Part shown: positions 1 through 56,140 of the stretch, piece by piece
Position numbering within the stretch: the first letter of the stretch is position 1
How the letters are laid out: the number at the start of each line of letters is the position of its first letter
Made by a program: the position numbers and the translations under genes
Source of the DNA: an uncultured Thermoleophilia bacterium
GTDB lineage: Bacteria > Actinomycetota > Thermoleophilia > UBA2241
DNA: 64,000 nt
Assembly (NCBI GenBank): GCA_963848545.1
Contig: CAWKEZ010000110.1
Coordinates: 8,979 to 72,978, forward strand
Reading direction: 5' to 3'
Notes under the pieces: generated by a model
Databases searched by the model: none
The model's input: only the letters and a program-made list of their open reading frames with translations
What the model was told of the DNA's origin: nothing

Positions 1-1577
<1,577 letters not shown>

Positions 1578-9874: not shown

Positions 9875-9932
9875 CCGGTCTTCTCTTTCGCCCTGACCTC
9901 ACTCACGTGGCCGCTTTGTGCTCCTGCGAGGA

Positions 9933-11600: not shown

Positions 11601-11639
11601 AGAGTACTGGGCTTGGCAACGTCAGGCGCGGCGAGATCG

Positions 11640-36397: not shown

Positions 36398-36522
36398 TAG
36401 CGCCGCACTGGCGCGTCTCCCCGACGCCTTTAAAGCGTCGCCCGCCGCTCCACACCCTCAGGCCCGTCGCGGCCGCTGCTTTCAACCTCCGTGGTGGAGC
36501 GCCCAGGCGAGTGTCGCGCGGG

Positions 36523-37407: not shown

Positions 37408-38667
37408 ATGCACGAGGTTAATGTCGGCCACAAGAGTTTGGCCGACTACCGCTCCATCGTCCCCAAAGATCTCATGGCCGAGATCGACGAGCTCTCGCGC
37501 GAGCTGCTGCGCGGACGCAAGGTCCTTCACGTTAACGCCACCGCCTTTGGCGGCGGCGTGGCCGAGATTCTCTACGCCCTGGTGCCTCTCGACGAGCGAC
37601 GCCGGCCTGGAGGCGCAGTGGCAGATCATGACGGCGCCGCCGGAGTTCTTCACCGTAACGAAGAGCTTCCACGACGGCCTGCAGGGCCACGCCGGTCAGA
37701 CTTCCCCACGGAGGCGCGCGAGCTCTACGAGAGCGTCTGCCGGGCCAATGCCGCCGAGCTCACGCGGTACTACGACTTCGTCGTCATCCACGACCCCCAG
37801 CCCCTTGCCATCCGGGACTTCGTGACCCTCAGCCAGGACCGCGCCACATGGTGGATCTGGCGCTGCCACATCGACACATCTACGCCCAACCGAGAGCTGT
37901 ACGAGTACCTGCTGCCGTCCCTCAACGGCTACGACGCCGCGGTATACACGTTGCAAGACTATGTGCCCAGCGGTCTCGGCATACCGGTGCGTGCCATCGC
38001 CCCCACCATCGACCCGCTGGCGCCCAAGAACATGAAGCTCTCCAGCGAAGACGCCAGCTACATCGTGCGCCAGTTCGGCATCGACGCAGAGCGGCCGCTG
38101 CTGCTGCAGGTGTCACGCTTCGACCCCTGGAAGGATCCGCTGGGAGTGGTCGACGTGTATCGCTCCGTCAAGGCTGTGCACCCCGACGTGCAGCTCGCCC
38201 TCGTCGGTTCCATGGCGAGCGACGATCCCGAGGGCTGGGAGTACCTCGAGAAGGTCATCGATTACGTGGGCGCCGACCCGGACGTGTTCGTGCTCTCCAA
38301 CATCGACAATGTGGGGTCGGTGGAGATCAACGCCTTTCAGAGCCACGCCGACGTGATCATCCAGAAGTCCACTCGCGAAGGGTTCGGCCTCACCGTGACC
38401 GAGGGGCTCTGGAAGGGCCGCCCCACCATTGGTGGGGCGGTAGGCGGCATCCCCCTGCAGATCGAAGACGGCGTGACCGGGTACCTGGTGAAGTCGGCGG
38501 CGGAGTGCGCGCAACGCTGCCTGCAGGTGCTGGCCGATCCCGAGATGCACCGCCGCATGGCTCTGCAGGGCAAGGAGCACGTGCGTCGCGAGTTTCTTAC
38601 GCCGCGGCTCCTGCGCGACGACTTACGGCTCTTCCGCGACCTGCTCACGGGTAAGATAGGGTCCTAG
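37408..38667 (+). CDS. GT4 glycosyltransferase, TreT (trehalose glycosyltransferring synthase)-like; two compensating frameshifts ~37590 and ~37700
   Basis: KVLHVNATAFGGGVAEILYALVPL then |SDAGLEAQWQIMTAPPEFFTVTKSFHDGLQG in another frame, returns to frame at ...TEARELYES; C-terminal GT4 E-x7-E region. Confidence 0.55.
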   Translation: MHEVNVGHKSLADYRSIVPKDLMAEIDELSRELLRGRKVLHVNATAFGGGVAEILYALVPLDERRRPGGAVADHDGAAGVLHRNEELPRRPAGPRRSDFPTEARELYESVCRANAAELTRYYDFVVIHDPQPLAIRDFVTLSQDRATWWIWRCHIDTSTPNRELYEYLLPSLNGYDAAVYTLQDYVPSGLGIPVRAIAPTIDPLAPKNMKLSSEDASYIVRQFGIDAERPLLLQVSRFDPWKDPLGVVDVYRSVKAVHPDVQLALVGSMASDDPEGWEYLEKVIDYVGADPDVFVLSNIDNVGSVEINAFQSHADVIIQKSTREGFGLTVTEGLWKGRPTIGGAVGGIPLQIEDGVTGYLVKSAAECAQRCLQVLADPEMHRRMALQGKEHVRREFLTPRLLRDDLRLFRDLLTGKIGS

Positions 38668-38734: not shown

Positions 38735-40213
38735 GTGGGGCAAAGCAGGCAGACGGCCGACCTTGCGGGACGCCGGCTGGTCGTGGCGGCCAACCGGGGA
38801 CCAGTGCAGTTCCACCTCGACCCTTCCGGCGAGCCCGTGGTAACGCGCGGACCGGGCGGGCTCGTCACGGTGCTCACCGAGGTGCTGCGCAAGCACGCCG
38901 GCACCTGGGTTGCCGCGGCTCAAGGCGACGCCGAGGCCGAGCTTGCTAATCAGGGGCACTCCGTCGAGGTCAAGGTGGGCGGCGATGTGTATCGAGTGCG
39001 CTACGTCGCCGTGGAACCCAAGACGTACTACAAGTACTACAACATCGTGGCCAATCCGATGCTGTGGTTCATCCAGCACTACCTGTGGGACCTTGGCCGG
39101 CACCCCGACATCTCGGCGAATGAGCTCGACGCCTGGTACAACGGCTACGTGCCGGTGAACCGTCTTTTCGCCCAAGCTATCGCGGACGAGGTTGGCGATG
39201 ATGGCCTGGTCATGCTGCACGACTACCAGCTCTACTGTGTCGCGCCCGAGGTAAGGGCCGCCTTGCCACACGTGTTTCTGCACCAGTTTGTGCACATCCC
39301 CTGGCCGCAGAGCGACGCCTGGCTGGTGCTGCCCGAGCGCATCCGCGGGGCCGTCTTCGAGGGTCTGCTGGGCAACGACATCGTCGCCTTTCACACGCGG
39401 CACTACGCGGTGAACTTCCTGCAGTGCTGCAACGACCTCCTCGACCTACCGGTCGACATGCAGCGCCTCACGGTGCAGGTGGGCGCTCGCGAGGTATGGG
39501 TGCGGGCGTACCCTGTCTCCATCGACCCGGCGAGCTTGCGGGCGGCCGCCAAGGCGCAACGGGTGGCGGCCGAGGAGCGGCATCTGCTGGAGCGCCGCCG
39601 CGAGCATCTGCTGCTGCGCGTCGACCGCCTCGACCTGAGCAAGAACATCATCCGGGGGTTCCTCGCTTTCGACCGCTTCCTCGACATGCACCCCGAGTTT
39701 CGCGAGCGCATCACCTTCCTCGCGCTGGTGCAGCCCTCGCGCGAGGACGTGGAGGAGTTCGTGGTCTACCGCGAACGCGTGACGCGCACCGTCGAGCAGA
39801 TCAACACCAAGCACGGCAACACCGACTGGATGCCCATCGACCTGCGCGTGCAGGACAATTTCCCGATGACCCTGTCTGCCTACCGCCACTACGACGCCCT
39901 CCTGGTCAACGCGATCTTCGACGGCATGAACCTGGTCGCCAAGGAGGGGCCTATCCTCAACCAGCGCGACGGGGTGCTCATCCTCTCCGAGAACACAGGG
40001 GCGAGCGAGGAGCTGGGTGCCTTCGCGGTGAGCGTAAACCCGTTCGATATCGATGAGCAGGCCGAGGCTATCTACCGCGCTCTCACCATGCCGGTCGCGG
40101 AGAAGCGCGATCGGCTGCGGCAGCTTCGCGCCGTCGTCGCCCGCAACAGCATCGAGAAGTGGGTGCACGCGCAGTTCGCCGACATCGCGCTGAAACTCGC
40201 TGCGCAGGGGTGA
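38735..40213 (+). CDS. otsA: alpha,alpha-trehalose-phosphate synthase (GT20)
   Basis: LVVAANRGPV..., LVMLHDYQLYCVAPEVR, FVHIPWPQSD, ...GMNLVAKEG. Confidence 0.85.
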   Translation: MGQSRQTADLAGRRLVVAANRGPVQFHLDPSGEPVVTRGPGGLVTVLTEVLRKHAGTWVAAAQGDAEAELANQGHSVEVKVGGDVYRVRYVAVEPKTYYKYYNIVANPMLWFIQHYLWDLGRHPDISANELDAWYNGYVPVNRLFAQAIADEVGDDGLVMLHDYQLYCVAPEVRAALPHVFLHQFVHIPWPQSDAWLVLPERIRGAVFEGLLGNDIVAFHTRHYAVNFLQCCNDLLDLPVDMQRLTVQVGAREVWVRAYPVSIDPASLRAAAKAQRVAAEERHLLERRREHLLLRVDRLDLSKNIIRGFLAFDRFLDMHPEFRERITFLALVQPSREDVEEFVVYRERVTRTVEQINTKHGNTDWMPIDLRVQDNFPMTLSAYRHYDALLVNAIFDGMNLVAKEGPILNQRDGVLILSENTGASEELGAFAVSVNPFDIDEQAEAIYRALTMPVAEKRDRLRQLRAVVARNSIEKWVHAQFADIALKLAAQG

Positions 40214-42482: not shown

Positions 42483-43772
42483 ATGATCCTTTACCTCGAT
42501 TGCTCGAGCGGCATCAGCGGTGACATGCTCGTGGCCGCGCTGCTCGCGCTCTGCGGAGCGCGGGCGGAAGACCCGGGGCCTCTTGACGACGTGGTGCGCC
42601 CCGCCCTGGCGGCGGCCGGCATCGACCCCCGCCTCGGGTCTCTCGAGGAGGTCCGCCGCGGCGGCCTCGCGGCGCTCTCGTTCAGGGTGGCCGACGGCGT
42701 GGGTTTCGCGACCTTCGACGAGCTCATCATGTCTCTGTACGCGTCGGACCTGGATCAGCCCGTCGCCGACGCCGTGGCCTCCGTGGCGGAGCGCATGGCG
42801 GCCGCCGAGGCCGAGGTGCACGGCCGCGACGCGGAACACCTGCACGAGCTGAGCGGCGTCGACACGGCGGTCGACCTCATCGCGGCGGCGGCCCTGCTGC
42901 AGCGCCTGGCCCCCGAGCGCATCGTCGCGTCACCACCGGCCATGGGCAACGGCACCGTCGATACCGCGCACGGACGCCTGAGCGTGCCGGCGCCGGCCGT
43001 GCTGAGCCTGCTGGCCGGTCTGCCTACTCTGGGCGGCGCGGAGGCGCACGACGACAAGCCGTTGGGCGAGCTCACCACGCCCACCGGCGCGGCCCTGCTG
43101 GCCCATTACGCGGAGAGCTTCGGCGCCCTGCCGGCCGGCCGTATCGAGCTCACCGGGTATGGGGCCGGCCAGCGCGAGGTGCCGGGCCAGCCCAACGTGC
43201 TGCGCGCCGTGCTCGTCGACCCTCGCGGTGTTTCCGCCACTGAGGCGACGGGCGCGGGCGACGACGCTGCCGCCGGCCACGGCCTCGGCGACCACCTGCT
43301 GCTCGAGACCAACATCGACGACATGAGCCCCGAGATGCTGGCCCTGGCCGCCGATACTCTGCGCGCCGCCGGCGCCGTGGACGTGTGGGTCAGCGAGGCG
43401 CTCATGAAGAAGGGTCGCCCCGGCAGCGTGCTGCACGTGCTCTGCACGGTCGCCGACCGACCGCTTCTGGCCGATCTGATCTTCGCTGAGACCTCCACCT
43501 TCGGCCTGCGCGTGCTGTCGGTCGGCCGCCTGTACGCTGAGGAGCGGCGCGAGACCGTTACTATCGGCAGCCACGAGATCGGCGTGCGTCTGGGCTACGC
43601 CGGCGGACGGTTGGTCACCGTCTCGCCGGAGTTCGAGGACGTGCGGCAGGTGGCGATCGCCGTCGGCCGGCCGGCCAAGGTGGTGTACGAGGCCGCCCAA
43701 GCCGGGGCCCGCGCGCGCTTCAGCCGCGCCCCTCGCGTGCACAATGAAGCTAGTCGGCCTGAAGCCGACTAG
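42483..43772 (+). CDS. larC: LarC-family nickel insertion protein (DUF111)
   Basis: MILYLDCSSGISGDMLVAAL... LarC N-terminal signature; C-terminal region conserved; no larA/B/E adjacent. Confidence 0.7.
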   Translation: MILYLDCSSGISGDMLVAALLALCGARAEDPGPLDDVVRPALAAAGIDPRLGSLEEVRRGGLAALSFRVADGVGFATFDELIMSLYASDLDQPVADAVASVAERMAAAEAEVHGRDAEHLHELSGVDTAVDLIAAAALLQRLAPERIVASPPAMGNGTVDTAHGRLSVPAPAVLSLLAGLPTLGGAEAHDDKPLGELTTPTGAALLAHYAESFGALPAGRIELTGYGAGQREVPGQPNVLRAVLVDPRGVSATEATGAGDDAAAGHGLGDHLLLETNIDDMSPEMLALAADTLRAAGAVDVWVSEALMKKGRPGSVLHVLCTVADRPLLADLIFAETSTFGLRVLSVGRLYAEERRETVTIGSHEIGVRLGYAGGRLVTVSPEFEDVRQVAIAVGRPAKVVYEAAQAGARARFSRAPRVHNEASRPEAD

Positions 43773-44067
43773 CAGATGCGGTCCGCCTGCGGCGACCGCA
43801 CGGGGGGTTGCCTCGCTTGCGCGCAGCCAGCGGGCCACCCCGACTAATCCCCCCACTGCAGGGTCGGAACAGGCGCGGCGGCCGCAAGGCCCTCCGCGTG
43901 TGCTCGGCGGCCTTGGGCCGATGAGCTTCGAACCCACTCTTGACGAAATTGACCCTCTCGATTACGCGTATGTAGAATGCGGCACAAGGGGCTGCCCGGC
44001 GCCTGCCGCGGCGGCCCCGCCTGACCCCTGCGAGACGCGCGGAATAGTGGATACAAAGGAGGACGCG

Positions 44068-45786
44068 TTGACTTCGTCTACCAAGCCCATTCGCCTGTCG
44101 CCGGTGCCGCGAGACATCGACATCGCCCAGGCTGCGACGATGCAGCCCATCACGGCCATCGCCGAGAAGGCCGGGATCCTCGAGAGTGAGCTCGAGCTCT
44201 ACGGTCGCTACAAGGCCAAGATCGACTACATGGCGGTGCTCGAGCGCTTCAAGGACAAGCCCGACGGCAAGATCATCAACGTGACGGCGATCACCCCCAC
44301 GCCGCTGGGCGAGGGCAAGACCGTTACGGCCGTAGGCCTCACCGAGTCGATGAACGCCATCGGCATCGACACCATGTTGGCCGTGCGTGAGCCCTCTCTA
44401 GGCCCGGTGTTCGGTATCAAGGGTGGTGCCGCCGGCGGCGGCTACTCGCAGGTCGTTCCGATGGAAGACATCAATCTCCACTTCACCGGCGACATCCACG
44501 CGGTCGGTGTCGCCAACAACCTTCTCGCCGCCATGGTCGACAGCCACATCATGCACGGCAACGATCTCCAGATCGACCCCCTCACCATCTCCTGGCGGCG
44601 CTGCGTCGACCTCAACGACCGTGCCATGCGCGAGATCGTCAACGGCCTCGGCGGGCGGCTCAACGGCCTGCCGCGCCAGACCGGCTACGACATCACGGTG
44701 GCCAGCGAGGTCATGGCCATCCTGGGCCTCGCCACCAGCCTCAAGGACCTGCGTGAGCGCCTTGGCCGCATCACGTTTGCCTACAGCAAGACGGGCAAGC
44801 CGCTGACCGCCGACGACATCGGCGCCGGCGGGGCCATGACAGTGCTCCTCAAGGATGCCCTCAAGCCCAATATCGTGCAGACGCTCGAGGGCAACGCGGC
44901 GCTCATCCACGCGGGCCCGTTCGCCAACATCGCCCAGGGCAACAACTCCATCATCGCCGACAAGGTCGCCATGAAGCTCAGCGATTACGTCGTCACCGAG
45001 AGCGGCTTCGCCGCCGACCTCGGCTCCGAGAAGTTCATGGACATCATCTGCCGCTACGGGGGCTTCGTGCCGAGCTGCGTGGTCATCACCTGCACCATGC
45101 GGGCGCTCAAGATGCACGGCGGGCTGCCGCTCGACCCCGAGCTGCTCAAGGCCGAGAACAACGAGGCGCTCACCAAGGGCTGCGAGAACCTCGCCAAGCA
45201 GATCGAGAACATGAAGCTCTTCGGCCTGCCCGTGGTGGTGACCATCAACCGCTTCGCCTTCGACCGTGACAACGAGGTCGAGATCGTGCGCCAGGAAGCC
45301 ATCGCAGCCGGCGCCGAAGACGCCGTGCCGATCAACGTGCACGCGCTCGGCGGCGACGGCGGCCAGGAGGCCGCCGAGGTAGTCAAGGCGGCCGCCGACA
45401 AGGGCGGCGACTTCCACTTTCTCTACTCCCTGGAGGCGTCCATCAAGGAGAAGATCGAGACCATCGCCACCAAGGTGTACGGCGCCGACGGCGTCGATTA
45501 CATGCCCGAGGCGGAGGCCAAGATCAAACTGTTCACCGAGCAGGGCCTCGACAAGCTGCCGCTGTGCATGGCGAAGACGCACCTCTCGCTGAGCCATGAT
45601 CCCGCCCTCAAGGGCCGTCCGCGCGGCTTCCGTGTGCCGATTCGCGATGTCCGTCCCGCCACCGGCGCCGGGTACCTGTACCCGCTGCTCGGTGAGATGC
45701 GCACCATGCCGGGTCTGGCCAAGCGGCCGGCGGCCGTAGATGTAGACATCGACGTCGAGACGGGGCGCATCATCGGCCTGTTCTGA
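44068..45786 (+). CDS. fhs: formate--tetrahydrofolate ligase
   Basis: TTG start after AAGGAGG; ...ITPTPLGEGKTVTAVGL..., ...IPVNLAG-type FTHFS core, 572 aa. Confidence 0.9.
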   Translation: MTSSTKPIRLSPVPRDIDIAQAATMQPITAIAEKAGILESELELYGRYKAKIDYMAVLERFKDKPDGKIINVTAITPTPLGEGKTVTAVGLTESMNAIGIDTMLAVREPSLGPVFGIKGGAAGGGYSQVVPMEDINLHFTGDIHAVGVANNLLAAMVDSHIMHGNDLQIDPLTISWRRCVDLNDRAMREIVNGLGGRLNGLPRQTGYDITVASEVMAILGLATSLKDLRERLGRITFAYSKTGKPLTADDIGAGGAMTVLLKDALKPNIVQTLEGNAALIHAGPFANIAQGNNSIIADKVAMKLSDYVVTESGFAADLGSEKFMDIICRYGGFVPSCVVITCTMRALKMHGGLPLDPELLKAENNEALTKGCENLAKQIENMKLFGLPVVVTINRFAFDRDNEVEIVRQEAIAAGAEDAVPINVHALGGDGGQEAAEVVKAAADKGGDFHFLYSLEASIKEKIETIATKVYGADGVDYMPEAEAKIKLFTEQGLDKLPLCMAKTHLSLSHDPALKGRPRGFRVPIRDVRPATGAGYLYPLLGEMRTMPGLAKRPAAVDVDIDVETGRIIGLF

Positions 45787-45936
45787 GCACCCTAGCGCGT
45801 GCCCCGGGGCGCCGGCCGCCTAACGGCGCCGGCGCCCCGCGGAGCCGCTCTCGGCGGCTCCGCGGGGTCCGGGCATCAGGCGTGATCGCGCGGCTCGGGC
45901 GTGATCACGTGGCGCGTCTCACAGCGGAGGTAAACC

Positions 45937-46578
45937 GTGAGCGATGGTCCCCCCATCTACGTAGAAGAACCCCTGCAGGTCTACCTCGACGACGCTGCGT
46001 CCAAGAAGCCTGCACCCGGGGGCGGCAGCGTGTCGGCCTGTGTCGGCGCGCTCGGCGCCGCCCTCGTCGAGATGGTGTGTAATCTCACTCGTGGGCGCGA
46101 GAAGTTCGCCGCCGCGGAAGACGAGATCGTGGCCCTCGTCGCCGACGCGGAGGCGGCGCGTCTGCGCCTCCAGCAGTTGCTCCAGGACGACACCACGGCG
46201 TACAACGGCGTGATCGAGGCCTTCAAGCTGCCCAAAGACACCGACCGGGAGAAAGAGGCACGCCGCGCCGCCGTTCAGTCTGGCCTCGTGGCGGCCGCCA
46301 ACGTGCCCCTCGAGATCTGCAAGGTCGCCGTGGAGGTCTGCCGCCTGTCGAAGACAGCGGCCGCCCTGGGCAACCCGCAGGCGGTCACCGACGCCGGCAT
46401 CGGCGCCATCCTCGGCGAGGCGGCCGTGGTGGGCGCCGCCCTCAACGTGAAGATCAACCTCGGCTCCATAGAGGATTGCGATTACACCGCGGCGGCCGCC
46501 GCGCAGATCGACGAGATGCAAACCCAGGCTGCCCTCCTGCGCGCCGAGGTGCTCGCTCTCACGCTCTCCAAGCTCTGA
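45937..46578 (+). CDS. fchA: methenyltetrahydrofolate cyclohydrolase (FchA / cyclodeaminase-cyclohydrolase family)
   Basis: 213 aa, ...PAPGGGSVSACVGALGAALVEMVCNLT... characteristic of FTCD_C/FchA family. Confidence 0.75.
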   Translation: MSDGPPIYVEEPLQVYLDDAASKKPAPGGGSVSACVGALGAALVEMVCNLTRGREKFAAAEDEIVALVADAEAARLRLQQLLQDDTTAYNGVIEAFKLPKDTDREKEARRAAVQSGLVAAANVPLEICKVAVEVCRLSKTAAALGNPQAVTDAGIGAILGEAAVVGAALNVKINLGSIEDCDYTAAAAAQIDEMQTQAALLRAEVLALTLSKL

Positions 46579-46611
46579 CCATCTTCGAAAGAGAAACGCG
46601 AAAGGTACGCC

Positions 46612-47471
46612 ATGGCAGCTCAGATCATCGACGGCAAGGCTATCGCCGAGCAGATCCGTGAAGAGATCAAGGCCGAGGTCGCGAAGCTCGCGACGTGCGG
46701 TGTAAAGCCGGGAGTAGCCACCATCCTGGTGGGTGAGGACGGCGGCGCGCAGTTCTACCGCGGCCAGATCGAGAAGAACACCGCCACCGTGGGCTTCAAT
46801 TACTACAACAACATCCTGCCGGCCGGAGCCAGCGAGGCGGAGGTGTTGGCCCTCATCGACAAGCTCAACGCCGACCTCCACGTGCACGGCATCCTGGCGC
46901 TCATGCCCATGGCCGGCGAGATCGACCAGAACAAGGTCTTCAACGCCATCGCGCCGGTGAAAGACCTCGACTGCGTGAACCCGGCCAACATCGGCCACGT
47001 GCTGCTCGGCGACCAGCTCTTCGCGCCGGCGACGCCGTCGGCCTGCATGGAGATCTTCGACCGCGAGGGCATCGAGCTGCAGGGCCTGGATGTGACGATC
47101 GTCAACCACTTCGAACATCGTCGGCAAGCCGGTGGCGCTGCTCTGCCTCAACCGTAATGCCTCGGTGCACGTGGTCCACGTGTTCAGCCAAGACGTGCCC
47201 GCCGCCTGCCGCGAGGCCGACGTCGTCATCAGCGCGGCGCCGGTGCGTAACCTCATCAAGAAGAACATGGTCAAGCCTGGCGCCGTGGTGGTAGACGTCA
47301 CCACGATGCGCGGCGACGACGGCAAGCAGGTGGGCAGCCTGGAGTGGGAGGGCGTACTCGAAGGTGGCCGGCAGCGCCACGCCGGTGCCCGGAGGCGTGG
47401 GGCCCGTGACCAACGTCATCCTGCTCAAGAACGCTCTGGTGGCCTGCAAGACGCAGAGTGGCGTGAGCTGA
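46612..47471 (+). CDS. folD: bifunctional methylene-THF dehydrogenase/methenyl-THF cyclohydrolase FolD, at least two frameshifts (~47115, ~47340)
   Basis: MAAQIIDGKAIAEQIREEIK...ILVGEDGGAQFY...; NAD(P) Rossmann part in ORF 47132..47539 frame; true C-terminus GPVTNVILLKNALVACKTQSGVS* in third frame. Confidence 0.8.
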
Positions 47472-47621
47472 CAGCCACGTTCAGCTCGGGGCGCGGCCGG
47501 CGGCGTGAGCACCGGCGGCTGGGACGTGGTTCAATATAGAGAGACTCTGGTGGGAAGGAGGATGGCCGCACCGGGGCGGCGCGGCCATCCAACGAACGCG
47601 GAACATGACGTGGAGCTGATG

Positions 47622-48202
47622 TGATGCCCAGGCGAGTAACTCGTAGCGCGCCGGTCCTGACCGGCGGCGGACAACCCGACCTCGATCTCGCGCAGGTCGG
47701 GACCATCGTTGCCGAGGGCGATCCTCACGGCAACCTCATCGCGCTCCTGCAGCGCACCCAGCAGGTGTACGGCTATCTGCCGGAGCCGGTGGTCAACGAG
47801 ATCTCCCGGCTGAGCGGCGTGCCCGCCTCGCGCATCCACGGCATCATCACGTTCTACGCTCAGTTCTCGACGCTGCCGAGCGGTCGTCACAAGATCTGCG
47901 TCTGCCACGGCACCGCCTGCCACGTGGCCGGCGCCTCGCGCATCACCGAGGCCTTCGAGCAAGAGCTTGGGGTCGCCGACGGCGACACCACGCCCGACAT
48001 GGAGTTCACGCTCGACAGGGTCGCCTGCATGGGGGCTTGTTCCAGGCGCCCGTGATGCGCATCGACGACGGCACGTTCGGCAACCTTAACGCCGATCAGA
48101 CGCGCAAGATCATCCATGACCTCGTCAAGGATCTCGGCCTCGAAGAGGCTTACTCCGGCGGTGGGTCCGCCGTCGCGGCGGCGGGGGGTGACGGCAATGG
48201 CT
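47622..48202 (+). CDS. NuoE/HoxE-like 2Fe-2S thioredoxin-fold ferredoxin subunit, frameshift ~48035; stop overlaps nuoF-like start
   Basis: ...IITFYAQFSTLPSGRHKICVCHGTACHVAG...ACMGACS|LAPVMRIDDGTFGNL... (4 Cys ligands). Confidence 0.75.
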
Positions 48203-50107
48203 GAGTCCGTGAGCACGGCGCCGCAGACCGTGCCGGCCGAGGGCGTCAAGGTCGGCGTGTCAGCCGCCGGCAACGGCAAGCGCCGGGTGTCGGTGTGCGC
48301 CGGCACTGCCTGCGTGTTCGCCGGCTCCATGAAGGTGCGCGACGCATTCATCGCGGAGGTGGCGGCCGCCGGCCTGCAGGACGAGGTCGAGGTGACCATC
48401 ATCGGCTGTCACGGCCTGTGCTCGCAGGGGCCGTTGGCGGTGCTCTCGGATGGCGATACCTACTACCCGCGCCTCAAGGTCAAAGATGTGGCCACGGTGG
48501 TCCAGGAGCATCTCGTGGGCAGCACCGTGGTGGAGAAGCTACTCTACGTCGATCCCGTGAGCGGCGAGCGCATCGCCTGTGCTCACGAGATCCCGTTCTA
48601 CAAGGCGCAGACGCGCATCGCTCTGCGCGACGTGGGCGTCATCAATCCCGAGAGCCTCGACGAGTACCTCGCGCGCGGCGGTTATGAGGCGTCGCGCAAG
48701 GCGCTCACCACCATGCAGCCGCAGGAGATCGTCGCCGAGATGCTAGCCTCCGGCTTGCGCGGTCGCGGCGGCGCCGGTTTTCCCACCGGCATGAAGTGGA
48801 AGTTCGCCGCCGCCTCCCCCGGCGACGTTAAGTACGTCATCTGTAACGGCGACGAGGGCGACCCCGGGGCTTTCATGGACGCGTCCATCATGGACGGCGA
48901 CCCGCATGCCGTGCTCGAGGGTATGACCATCGCCTCGTACGCCATCGGCGCCCACGAGGGCTACATCTACGTGCGTGCCGAGTATCCGCTCGCGGTCAAG
49001 CGTCTGCGCCTGGCCATTGCCGCCGCCGAGGAGCGCGGGTTCCTCGGCCACGACATCTTCGGTAGCGGCTGGGATTTCAAGCTCAAGATCAAGGAGGGCG
49101 CCGGAGCCTTCGTGTGCGGCGAAGAGACCGCCCTGATCGCCTCCGTCCAAGGTGAGCGGGGCATGCCGCGCAAGCGGCCGCCGTTCCCGGCCGTCTCCGG
49201 CCTGTGGGGCAAGCCCACCAACATCAACAACGTCGAGACGTACGCCAACGTGCCCTGGATCATCGCCCACGGCGCCGCCGCCTACGCCGCCTTCGGCAAC
49301 GAGACCTGCAAGGGCACCAAGGCCTTCAGCCTGGCCGGCAAGATCGTCAACGGCGGCCTCGCCGAGGTGCCCATGGGCTCCACCCTGCGCCACGTCATCT
49401 TCGACGTGGGCGGCGGCATCAAGAACGGCCGCCAGTTCAAGGCCGTGCAGCTCGGCGGCCCCTCGGGCGGCTGCATCCCGGCGAGCCTGCTCGACACCCC
49501 GGTCGACTACGAGAGCCTGGCCGCCACCGGCGCCATCGTGGGTTCTGGCGGCATGGTGGTGGCCGACGACAGCACCTGCATGGTCGACCTCGCCAAGTAC
49601 TTCCTGCAGTTCACCCAGAACGAGAGCTGCGGCAAGTGCGTGCCCTGTCGCCTGGGCACCAAGCGCATGCTCGAGATCCTCGAGCGCATCACGGCCGGCG
49701 AGGGGCGTGAGGGCGATATCGAGAAGCTCGAGACGCTCGCCACGTCTATCAAGAAGACCAGCCTCTGCGGCTTGGGGCAGACGGCGCCCAACCCGGTGCT
49801 TACCACGGTGCGCTACTTCCGCGACGAGTACGAGGCGCACATCAGCGAGCATCGCTGTCCGGCGCTGGCCTGCGACGCGCTTATCGCCTACACCATCGAT
49901 CCCGACGCCTGCACGGGCTGCCTGTTGTGCGCCAAGCGCTGCCCGGTCGGCGCCGCTCACGGCGAGAAGAAGCAGCCGCACGTGATCGACCAGGACCTGT
50001 GCGTCAAATGCGATGCCTGCCGCGCGGCCTGCAAGTTCGAAGCGGTGAAGGTCGTAAGCGGGCCAGACACCATCGCTGCCGCCGTAGCCGCGCAGCGCGG
50101 CGGCTGA
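48197..50107 (+). CDS. NuoF-like NAD(H)-binding FMN iron-sulfur flavoprotein (HndC/HydB-type: N-terminal 2Fe-2S, NuoF core, C-terminal 2x[4Fe-4S])
   Basis: CAGTACVFAG...IGCHGLCSQGP; GRGGAGFPTGMKW; ESCGKCVPCRLGT; CTGCLLCAKRCP...CVKCDACRAAC. Confidence 0.85.
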   Translation: MAESVSTAPQTVPAEGVKVGVSAAGNGKRRVSVCAGTACVFAGSMKVRDAFIAEVAAAGLQDEVEVTIIGCHGLCSQGPLAVLSDGDTYYPRLKVKDVATVVQEHLVGSTVVEKLLYVDPVSGERIACAHEIPFYKAQTRIALRDVGVINPESLDEYLARGGYEASRKALTTMQPQEIVAEMLASGLRGRGGAGFPTGMKWKFAAASPGDVKYVICNGDEGDPGAFMDASIMDGDPHAVLEGMTIASYAIGAHEGYIYVRAEYPLAVKRLRLAIAAAEERGFLGHDIFGSGWDFKLKIKEGAGAFVCGEETALIASVQGERGMPRKRPPFPAVSGLWGKPTNINNVETYANVPWIIAHGAAAYAAFGNETCKGTKAFSLAGKIVNGGLAEVPMGSTLRHVIFDVGGGIKNGRQFKAVQLGGPSGGCIPASLLDTPVDYESLAATGAIVGSGGMVVADDSTCMVDLAKYFLQFTQNESCGKCVPCRLGTKRMLEILERITAGEGREGDIEKLETLATSIKKTSLCGLGQTAPNPVLTTVRYFRDEYEAHISEHRCPALACDALIAYTIDPDACTGCLLCAKRCPVGAAHGEKKQPHVIDQDLCVKCDACRAACKFEAVKVVSGPDTIAAAVAAQRGG

Positions 50108-50122
50108 CACGACCAACGAGTG

Positions 50123-50168
50123 GCGAGGGGCCGCGGCGGTGTCGACAGACACCGCCGCGGCCCCTCGC
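50123..50168 (+). terminator. strong GC hairpin (21-bp stem, GACA loop) after nuoF-like gene
   Basis: GCGAGGGGCCGCGGCGGTGTC-GACA-GACACCGCCGCGGCCCCTCGC. Confidence 0.5.
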
Positions 50169-50243
50169 CGCGCACTGCCTCTGGGGCCGCTGCGGCCGGA
50201 TTTGCGCATCGTGTGCGAAATGGCGGTGGATCAGGGCGCTATG

Positions 50244-50288
50244 TAGGAATCGGCAATATGCGTTTTTCGCACGTTGCCGATTCCTACA
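50244..50288. promoter_or_regulatory. perfect 14-bp inverted repeat (GTAGGAATCGGCAA-N17-TTGCCGATTCCTAC) in AT-richer region upstream of lrp
   Basis: Direct reading of sequence; followed by TTGACA-like -35 at ~50303. Confidence 0.4.
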
Positions 50289-50369
50289 AAGGGTGCCTTC
50301 CCCTTGACATTTTCCGACGCTGGGTATCGAAATAGGCGGGCGGAATTGGCGCGTGACCAGGGGGGTCGA

Positions 50370-50835
50370 ATGCCATTCAGTCTCGACGCGATCGATCGGA
50401 AGATCGTGCTCTCCTACTCGAAGACGGTCGCGTGTCGTCGGCCGAGATAACACGGCGCATCGGCCACGTGTCGGAACGGGCCGTGCGCTACCGGATCGAG
50501 CGTCTCATCCGCTCTGGCGTGATCCGCGTCAGCGCCATAGTCAATCCGCAAGCGGTGGGCTTCTCGGTAATCGGCGACGTGCTCATCGACGTCGCTCCCG
50601 GCAAGCTGCAAGACGTCGCCGCCCAACTCGTTGAGATCCCGACCGTCAGCTACCTGGCGGGCTCCGTCGGCGAGGGCGACCTCAGCGTGCAGGTGTACGC
50701 CCGCGACACGGAGGAGCTCCTGCGCTTCGTCAACGAAGTGATCGGCAAGGTTCCGGGAGTCACGCGCACAAAGCTTGCCATGGTGCCGTGGAAGCTCAAG
50801 GACGTGTATCAGTGGCAGGTTCCCGTTGGAGGCCG
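50370..50835 (+). CDS. Lrp/AsnC-family transcriptional regulator, frameshift ~50415; no stop before downstream permease in this frame
   Basis: MPFSLDAIDRKIVL|...EDGRVSSAEITRRIGHVSERAVRYRIERL (HTH) ...RAM domain. Confidence 0.65.
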
Positions 50836-50955
50836 CTGTGGAAGGGAGGGCCATCGGCTGAGGCGTTTCCGCGTACGTGTGTCTCTCACCAACGACCACG
50901 GTATCGCCGGCAGGGGCCTAGTCGGTGAGCCAAGGGGACGAAGCAAGGGGGGAAA

Positions 50956-52581
50956 TGTGGCTGAAGAACTAGCCTTTGCCCGCAAAGCGAGCGGCCTTGT
51001 TCGTGGCCTCTCCATGATGGACGCTTTCGCCGTCGGTTTCATGAACCAGGGGCTCACCCCGAGCATCTGGTTCACGATCAGCCTCGGCCTGGGTGTCTTC
51101 ATGGGCGGCAACCTGATTATCGCCTGTATCATCTCGGCGGTGCTCGCCGGTATCGGCTTCCCCATCGTCTGGGGTGTCCTCGGCGGGTCGATGCCGAGGT
51201 CGGGCGGCGAGTACGTCTACAACTCACGCATCATCCATCCGATCTACGGTATCGCTCAGAGCTTCGGAGATGCCGCCATCTGGCTGATGTGGATCTTCGT
51301 GCTGGCACCGCTCGCCGTGGACCCCGGTCTCACCACCACGTTCAACTACATGGGGCTCAACGGCGCTGCCAACTGGATCACCAGCTCCACGGCCGTCACC
51401 CTGCTGATGGTCACCGTCTTCAACATCCTCGGTTTCATCTTCGTGGTCTTCGGCATCAGGATCTTCGCCCTGACGCAGAAGATCGTGATGTTCTTCGGCA
51501 TCGGTGGCTGCATCGTCATCGGCCTCGTGCTGACCTTCTCATCACATGCCAACTTCGTCTCCAAGTGGAACACTGCCGCGGCAGCTACACACTCGGCCAA
51601 CTACAACCAGTTCATCGTCAAGGTCGGCCAGGCGGCCGGCCAGCTGGTGCCGCACTCCTGGAGCTGGGGTCCCACATTCGGCTGCATGGTGGCCATGTCG
51701 TGGCTGTTCGCCTACGCCTACTCGATCTCGTTCATCGGCGGCGAGGTCAAGCGGCCCAGACAAGACCATCATCTTGTCCAACCTCTTCGCCATCGCCGTG
51801 CCGTTCGTCTTCATGCTGTGGATCGCCATCGTGCTCGAACAGGACGGTCGGCTACCAGTTCCTGAATGCCTCAGCCTGGAACGACAACAACGGTGGCATC
51901 GCGGCGGTCGCCAACATGCCGCACACCACCAACTTCATGGATCTGGCGGTCTACAACATCGGCACGAAAGCCTGGTACACGAAGCTCGCCGCCGGCTACA
52001 TGGGCTTCTCGTATGTGGCGTTCACGCTGTGGTGGATCGCGCTTTCCTACCTGGCCTTCCCGCGCATCCTCTTTGCCTGGGGCATGGACCGCATGGGCCC
52101 CAAGTGGTTCACCGACATCAACCCTCGCTGGGCCAGCCCGGTGAAGAACTACATCGTCTGCTTCGTGATCGGCGAGGGGTTGCTGGTCCTTCAGACCTTG
52201 TGGCTCTCCAGTGTCATGCAGAACCTAATCGTCACCGGCATGCAGGTGACGTCGGTATTCATCCCGACAGCGATCGCGGCTCTGCTCTTCCCGTACGTCA
52301 AGCGCGCCAAGGGGGTGTGGGACTCGTCGCCGTACAAGACGTGGATGTTCCTCGGCATCCCGGTGGTGGTCTGGGGTGCCGTGCTCGACCTCATCTACCT
52401 CGGCATTCTGCTCTACGTCTTCGTGTTCAACAGCGCGGCCGGCCAGTTCACCCTGGCGGGCGACATCATCATGGTGACTGCCTGGGTCGCGGGCATCGCC
52501 TGGTACTTCTTCTGGAAGCAGCGCAGCAGAGCGGTCGGCGTGGACGTCTCGCTCACCTACGGCGAGTTGCCACCCGAGTGA
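50956..52581 (+). CDS. APC-superfamily amino acid permease, frameshifts ~51760-51870
   Basis: GTG start after AAGGGGGG; 12-TM-like sequence across ORFs 50432..51865, 51289..52581 and 51546..52586. Confidence 0.6.
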
Positions 52582-52647
52582 TCTAGCAGTACCGTGAGGG
52601 ACGGGAGCATCTCGCTCCCGCCCCTCACTCGTCCCTGGAGTGTGTAG

Positions 52648-53580
52648 ATGATCAAGCTCTTCTTCGTCACCGACGTGCACGGCTCGAACGTCTGCTACCG
52701 CAAGTTCCTGAACGCCCTGCCGATCTACGGCGTCGATGTCGCCGTGATGCTCGGCGACCTCACCGGCAAGGTGCTCGTGCCCTTAGTCGAGAAGGGCAAC
52801 GACGCCTGGGAGTGCACCCTCATGGGTCAGCACCGCGACATCGCCAGCAAAGAGGAGCTCGCCGAGTACAAGAAGGTCATCGAGAACGCCGGCTACTACT
52901 GGGTCCACCAGAGCCGCGAGGAGTTCGAGGAGACGCGCGCCGACCCGGCCAAGATCGACACGCTCTTCAAGAGCCTCGTCTTTACGCGCGTGCAGGAGTG
53001 GCTCGACTTAGCCGACGAGCGCCTCGAGGGCAAGCCCTACGAGATGTACATGTGCCCCGGCAACGACGACTGGTTCGTGATCGACGACATGATCGACGCC
53101 GCCAAGCTGATCCACCCCTGCGACAAGCGCGTGGTCGACGTCGGCGGCCACGAGATGGTGACCAGCTCGGCCTCCAACCCGACGCCCTGGGATACCCCCC
53201 GCGAGATGAGCGAGGTCGACCTCGAGGCGCACCTGCGCGCCCTCACCGAGCAGATCAAAAACCAGGAGACGGCGATCTACAACTTCCACGTGCCGCCCTA
53301 CGGCTACTCGCTCGACCTCTGCCCCAAGCTCGACGAGAACCTCACCATGGCGGCCGAGGAGAAGATCCACGCCGGCAGCCTGGGCGCCAAGAAGCTGATC
53401 GAGGAGAACCAGCCGCTGCTCGGCCTCTTCGGCCACATCCACGAGAGCCGTGGTGCCCAGAAGGCCGGCCGCACGCTGCTCATCAACCCCGGCAGCGAGT
53501 ACTCCGAGGGCATCTTGAAAGGTGTTATCGTCATGCTCGACAAGAAGAAGGTGAAAGACTACGTCTTCACGTCGGGCTGA
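52648..53580 (+). CDS. calcineurin-like metallophosphoesterase
   Basis: DVHG (motif I), GDLTG, GNDD, GHIHE motifs; intact 310-aa ORF; lower GC than surroundings. Confidence 0.7.
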   Translation: MIKLFFVTDVHGSNVCYRKFLNALPIYGVDVAVMLGDLTGKVLVPLVEKGNDAWECTLMGQHRDIASKEELAEYKKVIENAGYYWVHQSREEFEETRADPAKIDTLFKSLVFTRVQEWLDLADERLEGKPYEMYMCPGNDDWFVIDDMIDAAKLIHPCDKRVVDVGGHEMVTSSASNPTPWDTPREMSEVDLEAHLRALTEQIKNQETAIYNFHVPPYGYSLDLCPKLDENLTMAAEEKIHAGSLGAKKLIEENQPLLGLFGHIHESRGAQKAGRTLLINPGSEYSEGILKGVIVMLDKKKVKDYVFTSG

Positions 53581-53642
53581 TCGTCACGAGACGGAGAAGC
53601 AGCGCGAAGACCCAGATCCCGAAAGGGGGGCGATAGCAAGAT

Positions 53643-54449
53643 ATGGGACAGTTCATACTCCCGAAGGACATACCGCTCGACCGGTATCCCAAACCCGAGG
53701 TGTTTCTCGATGAGGGCAAGCGGATCGCGGAGGCGGCCCAGAAGCAGGGCATCGTCATGCGCGTCATGGGTCCGTTGGCGCTGCACTACTACTTCCCCGA
53801 CCAGATAGATCTGTACGCGAGTCTCGAGCGCCTCGGTGAGCGTTACTTCACCGATATCGACTACGCCACCTACGGCAAGACGCGCAAGCACCTGGTGAAG
53901 TTCATGGAGTCGGTGGGCTACGAGTGCGACCTGCAGACGATGGCCATGACCGGCACCACGCGCCACATCTACTTCGGCGGCAAGGTGCCCATGATCGACG
54001 TCTTCATCGACAAGCTCGACTACTGCCACGAGGTCAACTACGACGGTCGCCTGGAGCTCGATCCCTGGAGCGTGTCGCTGGCCGACATCCTCCTGCAGAA
54101 GCTGCAGATCTGGGAGATCAACGACAAGGACCTCAAAGACATCGAGTACCTTTTCACGGTCGCCGACTTCGGCGAAGACGATACTAAGAAGGTCAACGTC
54201 GGCTACATCGCACGGCGGTTCGCCGACGACTGGGGCTTCTGGTACACCGGCACCACGAACCTCCAGCGTGTCAAGGATCATGTGGACAACGTCGCCGCCC
54301 TGAGCGACGAGCAGAAGGCCAAGATCAAGCAGGTCTCCGACAACGTGAAGGGCCGCATCGACCAGGAGCCGAAGACCAAGAAGTGGGACAAGCGCTCCAA
54401 GAAGGGCACCAAGAAGCTCTGGTACAACACAGGCTTCTCCGACTGGTGA
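53643..54449 (+). CDS. hypothetical protein (268 aa), Lys-rich C-terminus
   Basis: Intact ORF, lower GC, no confident domain (weak G...DxD-like MGPLALHYY...TDIDYAT). Confidence 0.4.
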   Translation: MGQFILPKDIPLDRYPKPEVFLDEGKRIAEAAQKQGIVMRVMGPLALHYYFPDQIDLYASLERLGERYFTDIDYATYGKTRKHLVKFMESVGYECDLQTMAMTGTTRHIYFGGKVPMIDVFIDKLDYCHEVNYDGRLELDPWSVSLADILLQKLQIWEINDKDLKDIEYLFTVADFGEDDTKKVNVGYIARRFADDWGFWYTGTTNLQRVKDHVDNVAALSDEQKAKIKQVSDNVKGRIDQEPKTKKWDKRSKKGTKKLWYNTGFSDW

Positions 54450-54573
54450 TAGGCCGTGGCCGGCGTGCCCTCCGGGCACGGCGGCGCACACCGACTCTAC
54501 TCGAGAGGGCCGGGGCGCCTACAGCGCCCCGGCCCTTCTGTTCTCGTGTAAAGCGTGTCGCGCCGGCCGCGCG

Positions 54574-55965
54574 TCAGTGCGCGACGAGCGTGCCCTGACG
54601 GTCGAGCTCACGCACCCCGGTCAGCGCCCCGCCGAGGCGCTCCACCACCTGGTCCATCTGCGCATAAGTGATGATCGCCGGCGGCTCCAGCCTGAACGTG
54701 TGGGCGTTGAAGAGCGTGCCGCCCACCAGGACCCCCCTGGCGAACAGGTCCTGGCTCACGGCGTAGCCGATCTCGGTGCTCTTGAACTGCAGCCCGATGA
54801 GCATGCCGAGGCCGCGGATCTCCGTGAACAGGTCGTCGTAGTCGGCGGCCAGCGCCTCGACCTTGCCCTTCAGATAGGCGCCCTTCTCGCGAGCCTGCCC
54901 GGGGATGTCTTCTTCGAGGGTGGCATGCAGCGCGGCAATAGCCGCCGAGGTGGCCATGGGGTTGCCACCGAAGGTGGTGGAGTGCATGTAGGGGTTCTCG
55001 AACATGCATTCATACACGTCGGCGGTGGAGATGATGTTGCCGCACGGGATCACGGCGCCGCCGAGTGCCTTGCCCATCGTCATGATGTCGGGGGCCACGT
55101 CCCAGTGGTCGATGCCCCAGAGCGTGCCCGTGCGGCCCATGCCGGTCTGGACTTCGTCGGCGATGAACAGAATGCCCCATTTGTCGCAGATCTCGCGCAC
55201 CTTGGGGAAGTAGTCGTCGGGCGGGACGATGGCGCCAGCCTCGCCCTGCACGGGCTCGGCGATGAACGCCGCGATGTCGAAGCCGATGGCGTCGCAGACG
55301 GAGAGCTCCTTGTCGAGCGCGTCGGCGTCGCCGTAGGGCACGAAGCGCACGCCGGGCATGAGCGGGTAGAAGGGCTCGCGAAACTCGGCCTTGCCGCTGA
55401 CGCTCAGGCTGCCGAACGACTTTCCGTGGAATCCCTTGGTTGTGGCGATCATGCCCTTGGTGTGGCCGGGCTTCTTGCGCCAGGCGTGCAACTTGGCGAA
55501 CTTCATGGCGCCCTCGTTGGCCTCGGTTCCCGAGTTGCAGAGGAACGAGTACTGCAGGTCGCCCGGCGTGACCGTGGCCAGGATGTGGCTCAGGTAGCCC
55601 CTCATGGGGTCCAATAGTTCCTGCGAATGCAGCGCCTGGTGCTCGAGCTGGTCCCTGACCGCTTTCACCACAGTTGGATGACGATGGCCGAGCATGTAGA
55701 TGCCGAAGCCACCAAGGCAGTCGATGAACTCCTTGCCGTGGATGTCTCGGAAGAGTGAGCCCTCGTCGCTCCACTCCACTGACGTGTAGTCGCTGGACAC
55801 CGACTTGCGGTACTCGAGAATCCCGGGGTTGACGTATTTGTCGAAGTTGGCTACGCAGTCCGCCACAACGGCATCCTGCTCACCGCGGCTTAGTGCTGAT
55901 TTGGACATCAGATCAAGCGCTTTGCGCGACTCTCGTAGGGCCGCCTGCTTCTCTGCATCCTTCAT
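54574..55965 (-). CDS. class-III aminotransferase, putrescine aminotransferase (PatA/YgjG)-like
   Basis: MKDAEKQAALRESRKALDLMSKS...; PLP site ...FIADEVQTGMGRTG...TMGKALGG; 463 aa; GGGGGA RBS. Confidence 0.75.
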   Translation of the reverse strand: MKDAEKQAALRESRKALDLMSKSALSRGEQDAVVADCVANFDKYVNPGILEYRKSVSSDYTSVEWSDEGSLFRDIHGKEFIDCLGGFGIYMLGHRHPTVVKAVRDQLEHQALHSQELLDPMRGYLSHILATVTPGDLQYSFLCNSGTEANEGAMKFAKLHAWRKKPGHTKGMIATTKGFHGKSFGSLSVSGKAEFREPFYPLMPGVRFVPYGDADALDKELSVCDAIGFDIAAFIAEPVQGEAGAIVPPDDYFPKVREICDKWGILFIADEVQTGMGRTGTLWGIDHWDVAPDIMTMGKALGGAVIPCGNIISTADVYECMFENPYMHSTTFGGNPMATSAAIAALHATLEEDIPGQAREKGAYLKGKVEALAADYDDLFTEIRGLGMLIGLQFKSTEIGYAVSQDLFARGVLVGGTLFNAHTFRLEPPAIITYAQMDQVVERLGGALTGVRELDRQGTLVAH

Positions 55966-56140
55966 TCGTTTCCCCCATCGCGTTGCGGTGTTGACCGAAA
56001 AACTCCCCATTTGCGGTATAGTTCGTACATCCGACCGAGCGTCATCCGACTGTAACGCGAAAACGGCTCGGCCGCAATGCTGTACTTGGGGGCGGGGTGG
56101 GGTGGGCCCTGATGGTAAGGTTCTGCGTGCAGAGGTGTAC

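Follow-up and report, generated by a model that had tools for sequence, protein, structure and literature searches.

A BfuBC-type redox pair without an adjacent BfuA gene follows fhs-fchA-folD in uncultured Thermoleophilia

Introduction

The window analysed in this work is a 64-kb stretch of DNA (about 67% G+C) from an uncultured member of the Thermoleophilia (Actinomycetota), and it raises the question of what a NuoE/NuoF-like flavoprotein pair does directly behind the folate genes fhs, fchA and folD when no catalytic partner lies beside it. Six genes on the + strand, at 42.3-50.2 kb, code for a LarC-type protein, Fhs, FchA, FolD, the NuoE-like protein and the NuoF-like protein; the last two were named bfuC and bfuB, respectively, after the Bfu scheme of PMC9304861. 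An earlier sequence-only reading of the locus had seen in the pair a possible NAD(P)H-ferredoxin interface for a reductive one-carbon (C1) route. The prevailing view is that a Bfu-type core always requires a third branch specific for its substrate, and the list of substrates that can be coupled is growing. A fully equipped BfuBC without BfuA, placed inside a formate-tetrahydrofolate (THF) operon, would make a clean test case: either the core is functional with its two subunits alone, or a partner of a new type docks onto it, possibly in C1 metabolism.

The pair behind folD as a complete BfuBC core

Pfam resolved the 636-amino-acid (aa) BfuB into an N-terminal 2Fe-2S_thioredx piece, Complex1_51K (PF01512), NADH_4Fe-4S (PF10589) and two C-terminal Fer4 domains (PF00037), in agreement with the earlier description of a NuoF-like protein carrying an extra N-terminal [2Fe-2S] domain and two C-terminal [4Fe-4S] motifs. 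SLBB was not separately reported; its region aligns without gaps to 7t2r_B. When compared with all PDB sequences, BfuB scored 660-820 bits against the B subunits of bifurcating enzymes (7t2r NiFe-HydABCSL, 8oh5 Stn, 9bov, HydB 7q4v/8a6t/7p5h and NfnB 9n5u), about 385 bits against complex I NuoF and 405-436 bits against FdsB, so that the previous assignment to the HydB/HndC type, and not to canonical NuoF, holds. The end-to-end matches included 7t2r_B (818.7 bits) and 8oh5_B (814.1 bits), with 9bov_B at 802 bits, and the alignment with the HydB of A. mobile (7t2r_B) ran gap-free over 588 residues. The cysteines of sites B1, B3, B4 and B5 are all conserved; the alignment retains the cysteines of the N-terminal [2Fe-2S], the N3-type [4Fe-4S] and both C-terminal [4Fe-4S] clusters. 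At the B2 site, the residues aligned with A. mobile C438, C476, H525, C531 and C536 are Cys, Thr, His, Cys and Cys, respectively. Schut et al. (2022, PMC9304861) report that bifurcating BfuB proteins have this B2 site (Cys, Cys/Thr, His, Cys, Cys), whereas it is missing from homologues that do not bifurcate. BfuC, in its repaired reading frame (see below), holds four cysteines in the motif CX4C...CX3C and found its best PDB matches among NfnC, HydC and StnA-type chains, with 121 bits to 8oh5_A.

Because the domains, the cluster ligands and the PDB scores fit, the pair is a complete BfuBC core of the Bfu (HydABC/Stn/NfnABC) family, not complex I NuoEF. The core has flavin mononucleotide (FMN) with an NAD(H) site and six Fe-S sites, among them the C-terminal pair facing ferredoxin. 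The earlier wording of an NAD(P)H interface finds no support in this, as the core binds NAD(H), and the NADP(H) subunit of its closest characterised relatives, Stn/NfnABC, is precisely the part that is missing here.

Conservation of the block and search for a third subunit

Ten further loci, nine of which are distinct, contain the block fhs-fchA-folD-bfuC-bfuB with intact folD and bfuC; they are called fhs-type loci here (L001, L002/L003, L004, L005, L084, L086, L087, L088 and L090, with L002/L003 counted once). The best protein matches came from uncultured Thermoleophilia, at 72-89% identity; the five genes are uninterrupted in the window and in all fhs-type loci, whose BfuB is 72-86% identical to that of the window. 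The flanks differ between loci while the block is constant: cspA and gatCAB come directly after bfuB in L002/L003 and L084, and the window, L086-L088 and L090 have an island inserted after bfuB that consists of lrp, a permease, two uncharacterised genes and an aminotransferase, with a TetR gene next in most of them.

No hydrogenase, formate dehydrogenase, MetF or BfuA-like gene was seen in the examined parts of the window (Pfam for 13.7-43.8 kb; translations inspected by eye for 0.2-13.3 and 50.4-64 kb). Likewise, tblastn and motif searches gave no BfuA N-terminal, GltD-like or H-cluster match within 8-10 kb in L001-L005, L084 and L086-L088; the called genes of L090 include no BfuA, hydrogenase or GltD-type gene, and those of the related fhs-type loci no formate dehydrogenase or MetF family. 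The absence of a catalytic partner in cis, noted before for the window, thus extends to the 10 related loci; a hairpin closes the operon, so that the refutation proposed with the earlier reading, by a partner encoded just outside, fails. In 74 of 75 BfuB loci of other lineages, a gene for a BfuA-type N-terminal [2Fe-2S] domain begins right after bfuB, and the BfuA genes of this 75-locus sample continue into an H-cluster domain or a GltD-like domain. This agrees with the published finding that HydB homologues are almost without exception accompanied by homologues of HydC and HydA (PMC9304861). The fhs-type clade is a genuine exception to the BfuA rule, since 74 of the 75 other loci have an adjacent BfuA and the fhs-type loci have none within 8-10 kb. 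A comparison of family-wide sites, made for signs of a lost BfuA interface in fhs-type BfuB, gave one difference and was uninformative; the sequence shows no sign that such an interface was abandoned.

[quoted passage not shown] The candidates are a GltD/NuoG-like NADP(H) subunit of the Stn/NfnABC type, which would supply NADPH for FolD, or a formate dehydrogenase or hydrogenase subunit. Bifurcation requires a third substrate on thermodynamic grounds, fhs-type BfuB retains nearly all family-conserved residues, the scores against Stn (8oh5_B) and 9bov_B are high, and the nearest outgroup loci in the tree, including L082 of Sporomusa silvacetica, carry a BfuA of Fer2_4+GltD architecture. In G. 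acidurici, formate is released from formyl-THF via Fhs. The same organism uses a bifurcating Fdh-Bfu enzyme in uric acid fermentation (PMC9304861), which adds a precedent for a partner of this kind. Nevertheless, the flanks of the fhs-type loci are empty of BfuA-type genes, and the sole BfuA-type protein found in a genome with the fhs operon is an 824-aa subunit of the nuo operon, fused to the C-terminal half of NuoI and encoded beside its own BfuC and BfuB. We regard a partner encoded in trans as possible, though on the doubtful side; if a distant BfuA is used, the product would be an ordinary Stn- or Fdh-type enzyme with a split gene organisation.

Gene layout and transcription signals

The coordinates of the genes and signals are collected in Table 1. 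The promoter-like site upstream of fhs was the sole match of the promoter prediction within 43.5-50.6 kb, and its -35 and -10 hexamers are kept across 8 aligned loci. In the same 8 loci, the start codon of fhs, a TTG at 44068, and the ribosome-binding site AAGGAGG in front of it are invariant, so that the ATG at 43744, from which fhs had previously been read, is not the start of the gene. Conservation of the 5' untranslated region of fhs is limited to the promoter and the ribosome-binding site. A riboswitch (ZTP, THF or similar) was also considered upstream of fhs and discarded, as no Rfam match was obtained at gathering or at E<=1.

Table 1. Coordinates of the genes and signals discussed in the text (window positions, except for the last row)
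Feature	Position	Strand	Basis or remark
Sigma-70-type promoter-like site, TTGACC-18-TAGAAT	43949..43978	+	upstream of fhs
fhs, formate-tetrahydrofolate ligase, 572 aa	44068..45786	+	Pfam FTHFS, E 2.6e-250
fchA-like gene (FTCD_C), 213 aa	45937..46578	+	Pfam PF04961, E 8e-61
folD, methylene-THF dehydrogenase/cyclohydrolase	46612..47471	+	THF_DHG_CYH and THF_DHG_CYH_C after frame repair; 285 aa
bfuC, NuoE/HydC/StnA-like [2Fe-2S] subunit	47624..48204	+	2Fe-2S_thioredx PF01257, E 2e-45; repaired, ~193 aa
bfuB, NuoF/HydB/StnB-like, 636 aa, intact	48197..50107	+	Pfam, PDB scores, residue alignment
Terminator-like perfect 24-bp GC-rich hairpin, no U tail	~50120..50171	+	after the bfuB stop
Second inverted repeat, 14-bp arms	50244-50290		between the hairpin and lrp
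LarC-type nickel-insertion gene	42483-43772	+	upstream of fhs
Island from lrp to TetR	50381-56810		between bfuB and cspA
Enolase open reading frame	204-1577	-	frameshifted
Fluoride riboswitch	1565-1634	-	RF01734, 51.4 bits, E 2.5e-11
hut cluster (hutU, glutamate formiminotransferase, hutI)	2634-6561	-	frameshifted
tRNA gene	29594-29667	+	Rfam RF00005, 65.6 bits
IS-type transposase	35178-37046	-	DUF772 + DDE_Tnp_1
TreT-like trehalose-synthesis gene	37408-38664		
GT20 trehalose-synthesis gene	38765-40210		
L085 nuo operon, nuoA-B-C-D-H-[I_N::bfuC]-bfuB-[bfuA::I_C]-J-K-L-M-N	7311-12475		GCA_040769125.1, JAXGLO010000001.1

Fhs, FchA and the repaired FolD gave full-length matches above the Pfam gathering scores, and the repaired FolD aligned to solved FolD structures across 278 residues. 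The fchA-like gene, which is kept in every fhs-type locus, is predicted to encode a methenyl-THF cyclohydrolase and/or a formimino-THF cyclodeaminase. The bfuC gene starts with an ATG behind GGAG, and this start is conserved in the alignment of the folD-bfuC spacer region. This spacer measures 90-265 nucleotides (nt) across the loci and is the longest gap within the block; an internal promoter at this point was rejected, since neither the alignment nor the prediction gave a conserved or predicted promoter in the spacer. The last two genes overlap by 8 nt (ATGGCTGA), with the ATG of bfuB at 48197 and the TGA of bfuC at 48202-48204. The overlap of stop and start had been recognised before and is confirmed, although it exists in the repaired frame of bfuC only; bfuC and bfuB are translationally coupled.

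Behind bfuB, the hairpin has a folding energy of -61.9 kcal/mol (z -8.2; 0 of 200 shuffled sequences folded as well) and was missed by a terminator scan that relies on a T tail. The next gene is lrp, and the strong terminator that was described earlier in front of it corresponds to this terminator-like hairpin, which lacks a U tail. The single promoter, the narrow gaps between the genes, the overlap of bfuC with bfuB and the hairpin at the end are read most simply as signs that fhs-fchA-folD-bfuC-bfuB form a five-gene operon, whose genes would be transcribed together.

Frameshifts in folD and bfuC

In the sequence as given, three-frame translation shows folD spread over three frames and bfuC over two. 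DNA alignment with five orthologues located two surplus bases in folD, a T at 47110 and an A at ~47361, and one base missing after 48043 in bfuC, where the unrepaired open reading frame stops at 48055. The orthologues are intact (FolD of 284-293 aa, BfuC of 179-199 aa). Thus, the gene order given in the sequence-only reading was right, whereas its intact folD and NuoE-like reading frames were obtained by passing silently over three frameshifts.

The two genes are not the only ones affected. In comparison with intact orthologues, at least 9 frame switches were counted in ~23.4 kb of coding sequence (22 genes) at 37-64 kb, about 1 per 2.6 kb; apart from folD and bfuC, those checked against orthologues fall in lrp, the amino-acid permease (two), gatA, a leuA-like gene and aconitase. 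Translations inspected by eye revealed further ones in enolase, hutU, hutI and liv-type transporter genes, and several related Thermoleophilia loci from long-read metagenome-assembled genomes (MAGs) likewise yield split matches. Such pervasive single-base frameshifts are the signature of an unpolished long-read assembly, and annotation of the window based on open reading frames consequently fragments many genes. Examples of frameshifted stretches are 204-1577, 2634-6561, 7285-11208, 50381-52578, 57632-59163 and 60962-63489.

Since genes as essential as gatA and aconitase are broken too, the three frameshifts of folD and bfuC are most likely assembly errors, that is, long-read indels. The opposite possibility, that folD and bfuC are true pseudogenes of this strain in a decaying operon, draws on their density, three per 1.4 kb against ~0.55 predicted from the window-wide rate. 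All three, however, are single-base indels with no further damage around them; fhs, fchA and the 1.9-kb bfuB are intact, every orthologue is intact, the same type of frameshift occurs in gatA, aconitase, the leuA-like gene and enolase, and the long-read MAG loci of relatives show split matches as well. We therefore judge the pseudogene reading extremely unlikely.

A paralogue within the complex I operon

In three related loci (L006-L008), bfuC-bfuB lie inside a nuo operon, with a BfuB 70-74% identical to that of the window, followed by an 825-aa protein in which a NuoG-type [2Fe-2S] module is combined with a GltD-like FAD/NAD(P)H domain and additional Fe-S domains. One genome holds both arrangements: the single 1.84-Mb contig of GCA_040769125.1 carries the fhs operon (L084) and, separately, a nuo operon (L085) with its own BfuC, BfuB and BfuA. 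The two sets are 72% identical in BfuB and 56% in BfuC. The idea that the pair is a displaced NuoEF input module was rejected, as both loci are on one contig and the nuo operon keeps its own E/F/G-like genes; this co-existence makes the window-type pair a paralogue and not a relocated module of complex I.

The nuo-type proteins have a peculiar structure. NuoI (TYKY) is divided between two of them, its first half matching the N-terminus of nuo-type BfuC (253 aa) and its second half the C-terminus of the 824-aa BfuA-type protein, and the paralogous nuo operons (L085, and also L006, L007 and L089) have no separate nuoI. To judge from these fusions, a whole Stn/Nfn-like BfuCBA module is in effect inserted inside a split nuoI, an arrangement that we did not find described in the Bfu survey PMC9304861. 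The fhs-type BfuC has no NuoI N-half extension and thus cannot replace a subunit of the membrane complex; the fhs-type pair is most likely soluble.

In a midpoint-rooted neighbour-joining tree without support values, fhs-type and nuo-type BfuB, 72-74% identical to each other, formed one Thermoleophilia clade, and the outgroup loci grouping with it, including L082 of Sporomusa silvacetica, mostly have a GltD-type BfuA. By its PDB bit scores, BfuB is not closer to any one of the Stn, NiFe-Hyd and FeFe-Hyd types than to the others. That the nearest relatives of the pair may be Stn/Nfn-type transhydrogenases is hence a lead, not a result.

Some BfuB sequences combine both types. In L089 (ERZ27248074 k141_4992437), a nuo-type 5' part (nuoH and the 253-aa BfuC) joins, within bfuB, a 3' context of fhs type with lrp, the permease and the 310-aa and 268-aa genes. 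The BfuB of this locus (P0080), like P0062, P0063, P0068, P0086, P0089, P0090 and P0097, has a nuo-like N-terminal part and an fhs-like C-terminus, and P0065 is the reciprocal mosaic. These mosaics are either assembly chimeras across a near-identical central region or the outcome of gene conversion between the paralogues.

The existence of the paralogue could also mean that the adjacency to folD has no meaning: a duplicated nuo-type BfuCB would have landed behind folD in an ancestor and been inherited there, serving general redox purposes or as a spare Nuo-Bfu input. The closeness of the two BfuB types within one clade fits this view, as do the central FMN/[4Fe-4S] part, which does not tell the paralogues apart, the long folD-bfuC gap, and the fact that the related genomes are not very distant from each other. 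On the other hand, the block has stayed intact while both of its flanks changed, no conserved promoter separates the pair from folD, and a BfuC without the NuoI half could not stand in for its nuo-type counterpart. We consider a meaningless adjacency unlikely.

Possible functions of the pair

What, then, could the pair do for the folate enzymes? We lean tentatively, at somewhat less than an even chance, to the reading that the BfuA-less pair acts for the folate C1 branch as a module linking NAD(H) with ferredoxin. BfuC and BfuB would form the usual BfuBC complex, a soluble one made together with the formate-THF enzymes, and this complex would move electrons between NAD(H) and ferredoxin, tying the pyridine-nucleotide step of FolD to the ferredoxin pool. 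In the absence of a third, more positive acceptor, the core alone would run downhill only, from reduced ferredoxin to NAD+; to go uphill or to bifurcate, it would depend on a third redox partner, and none is encoded adjacent. A module of this kind would add anaerobic redox physiology to the uncultured Thermoleophilia of soil and freshwater.

Several points weigh against such a module. Electrons from NADH cannot pass to ferredoxin unless a third, more positive acceptor takes part, and we know of no BfuA-less BfuBC that has been characterised biochemically, the third subunit being the rule of the family. Only one family-conserved position of BfuB is changed in the fhs-type clade (N145D), and by this measure the protein looks as constrained as its BfuA-binding relatives. 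The preference of FolD for NAD or NADP is not readable from its sequence. The relatives have diverged roughly at the genus-to-family level, so that inheritance and not selection may account for part of the synteny. Finally, 3 of the 9 frameshifts are found within 1.4 kb of folD-bfuC, somewhat above the window average, which leaves genuine decay in this strain a small chance.

The position of the pair directly after folD, whose product is methylene-THF, suggests yet another role, in which the pair feeds electrons from NADH to a MetF or MetFV encoded elsewhere and takes part in a bifurcating or NADH-dependent methylene-THF reductase acting after FolD. A bifurcating methylene-THF reductase has long been postulated, and among the C1 couples it is methylene-THF/methyl-THF (-200 mV) whose potential is positive enough to power the transfer from NADH to ferredoxin. 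The enzyme of A. woodii works with an NADH-binding subunit, RnfC2. Clusters of metFV with NuoEFG homologues in front of them are reported to occur widely in Desulfobacterales and Chloroflexi, and it has been speculated that they bifurcate (PMC8515935). Those reported clusters, however, have a NuoG (BfuA) homologue, which is absent here, and metF and metV were found neither in the examined parts of the window nor among the called genes of the related loci; we hold this role to be very unlikely. In a broader form, BfuBC would be a dedicated bifurcating core for a C1 reaction never shown to be Bfu-linked, be it through a separate MetF/MetFV or through a docked formate/CO2 enzyme of non-BfuA type. 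This we judge improbable; if true, NADH oxidation in the folate branch would drive ferredoxin reduction in an actinobacterium. The function is testable, but nothing so far indicates unusual chemistry.

The folate genes that the favoured NAD(H)-ferredoxin module would serve may work in either direction. The window holds a hut cluster composed of hutU, a glutamate formiminotransferase gene (FTCD_N-type N-terminus) and hutI, and there is no cyclodeaminase gene beside it. A single FTCD_C gene was seen in the window, namely fchA, which belongs to the fhs operon at a distance of 40 kb. From this gene content, fchA could serve histidine catabolism, and the pathway would then be oxidative, toward formate and ATP. 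The conversion of formimino-THF to methenyl-/formyl-THF and then to formate plus ATP is established in histidine and purine fermenters. An oxidative route appears as compatible with the genes as formate assimilation, and the reductive direction given to the C1 route in the sequence-only reading does not follow from them, as hutU, the formiminotransferase gene and hutI allow oxidative use.

Neighbouring genes and other features of the window

The LarC-type gene lies on the same strand upstream of fhs in nearly all related loci, and no larA, larB or larE is found near it. It was considered as a member of the operon and excluded, given that it has a conserved promoter region of its own and that in L086 three genes separate it from fhs; it is probably outside the fhs operon. 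Downstream of the terminator hairpin, a second inverted repeat (GTAGGAATCGGCAA...TTGCCGATTCCTAC) precedes lrp, and about 15 nt downstream of this repeat, ahead of lrp, a TTGACA hexamer was spotted by eye. The island between bfuB and cspA comprises lrp, an APC-type permease, the 310-aa and 268-aa proteins, a class III aminotransferase (- strand) and TetR. The lrp island is present in L086-L090 and absent from L002/L003 and L084; its 310-aa and 268-aa proteins are 82-88% identical to orthologues, for which no Pfam family was recorded.

Elsewhere in the window, the fluoride riboswitch is directly upstream of the enolase gene, the transposase gene lies between regulatory and trehalose-synthesis genes, and one tRNA gene was detected.

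Comparison with known systems

In the literature we found no account of an fhs-fchA-folD-bfuCB operon or of the C1 metabolism of these Thermoleophilia. Complex I NuoEF and FdsBG share with the pair the FMN/NADH domain, the N3-type [4Fe-4S] and the NuoE-type [2Fe-2S], but have no counterpart of its N-terminal [2Fe-2S] domain, its B2 site or the two C-terminal [4Fe-4S] clusters of BfuB; in addition to these extra Fe-S domains, the pair differs from a complex I N-module in not being in a nuo operon beside nuoG. The closest paralogue, at 72-74%, belongs to the Nuo-Bfu type, in which complex I has a BfuABC input (Geobacter and others), and is embedded in the nuo operon of related Thermoleophilia. 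The window pair stands outside a nuo operon, has no NuoI half, and its type co-exists with a nuo-type set on one contig.

The gene order around the A. woodii methylene-THF reductase (MetF-MetV-RnfC2) is presumably fhs1-fchA-folD-rnfC2-metV-metF. As in our block, an NADH-binding flavoprotein module stands there among C1/THF genes, and the same is true of the NuoEFG-metFV 'X-type' clusters (PMC8515935). RnfC2 is nevertheless a different, RnfC-type protein, the X-type clusters include a NuoG homologue, and metF and metV do not accompany the pair here.

The HydABC enzymes, whether of [FeFe] type (T. maritima, A. woodii, T. kivui) or NiFe-HydABCSL (A. mobile), have the same BfuB/BfuC architecture and ligands, with 677-819 bits. 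The HydABC loci sampled have hydA immediately after hydB, whereas the fhs-type loci carry no HydA, H-cluster or NiFe gene in cis. The Stn/NfnABC transhydrogenases (S. ovata StnABC, 8oh5; NfnABC of C. saccharolyticus and T. sibiricus) share the StnB-like and StnA-like subunits (814 and 121 bits), and their GltD/NuoG-like NADP(H) subunit (StnC/NfnA) is what the fhs-type operon and its 8-10 kb flanks lack. In S. ovata, stnABC is directly downstream of the Wood-Ljungdahl gene cluster, and Stn, the characterised precedent, keeps the pools of NADH, ferredoxin and NADPH in balance for a methylene-THF dehydrogenase that is specific for NADP (PMC7483475). StnB of S. ovata has lost two cysteines of the N-terminal thioredoxin-like domain (PMC7483475), and the window BfuB keeps all four.

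In the classification of Schut et al. (2022, PMC9304861), BfuBC without BfuA is Type 4 Bfu, which corresponds to BfuB clade 57 and includes the predicted Rub-Bfu; the third substrate is not assignable for most members, and a BfuA encoded elsewhere is allowed for. The fhs-type loci share the BfuBC-only cluster and fall under the operational definition of Type 4, although no rubrerythrin gene is adjacent, as it would be in Rub-Bfu. An association with fhs-fchA-folD is not described in that survey, in whose text 'folate' occurs 0 times; the legend names Dictyoglomi, Firmicutes and Thermotogae as the phyla of clade 57, and the supplement text has no Actinobacteria (PMC9304861). Because the phyla of clade 57 differ and the relatives of our pair are of the GltD type, the Thermoleophilia pair looks like a separate loss of BfuA in a Stn/Nfn-type lineage, probably outside clade 57.

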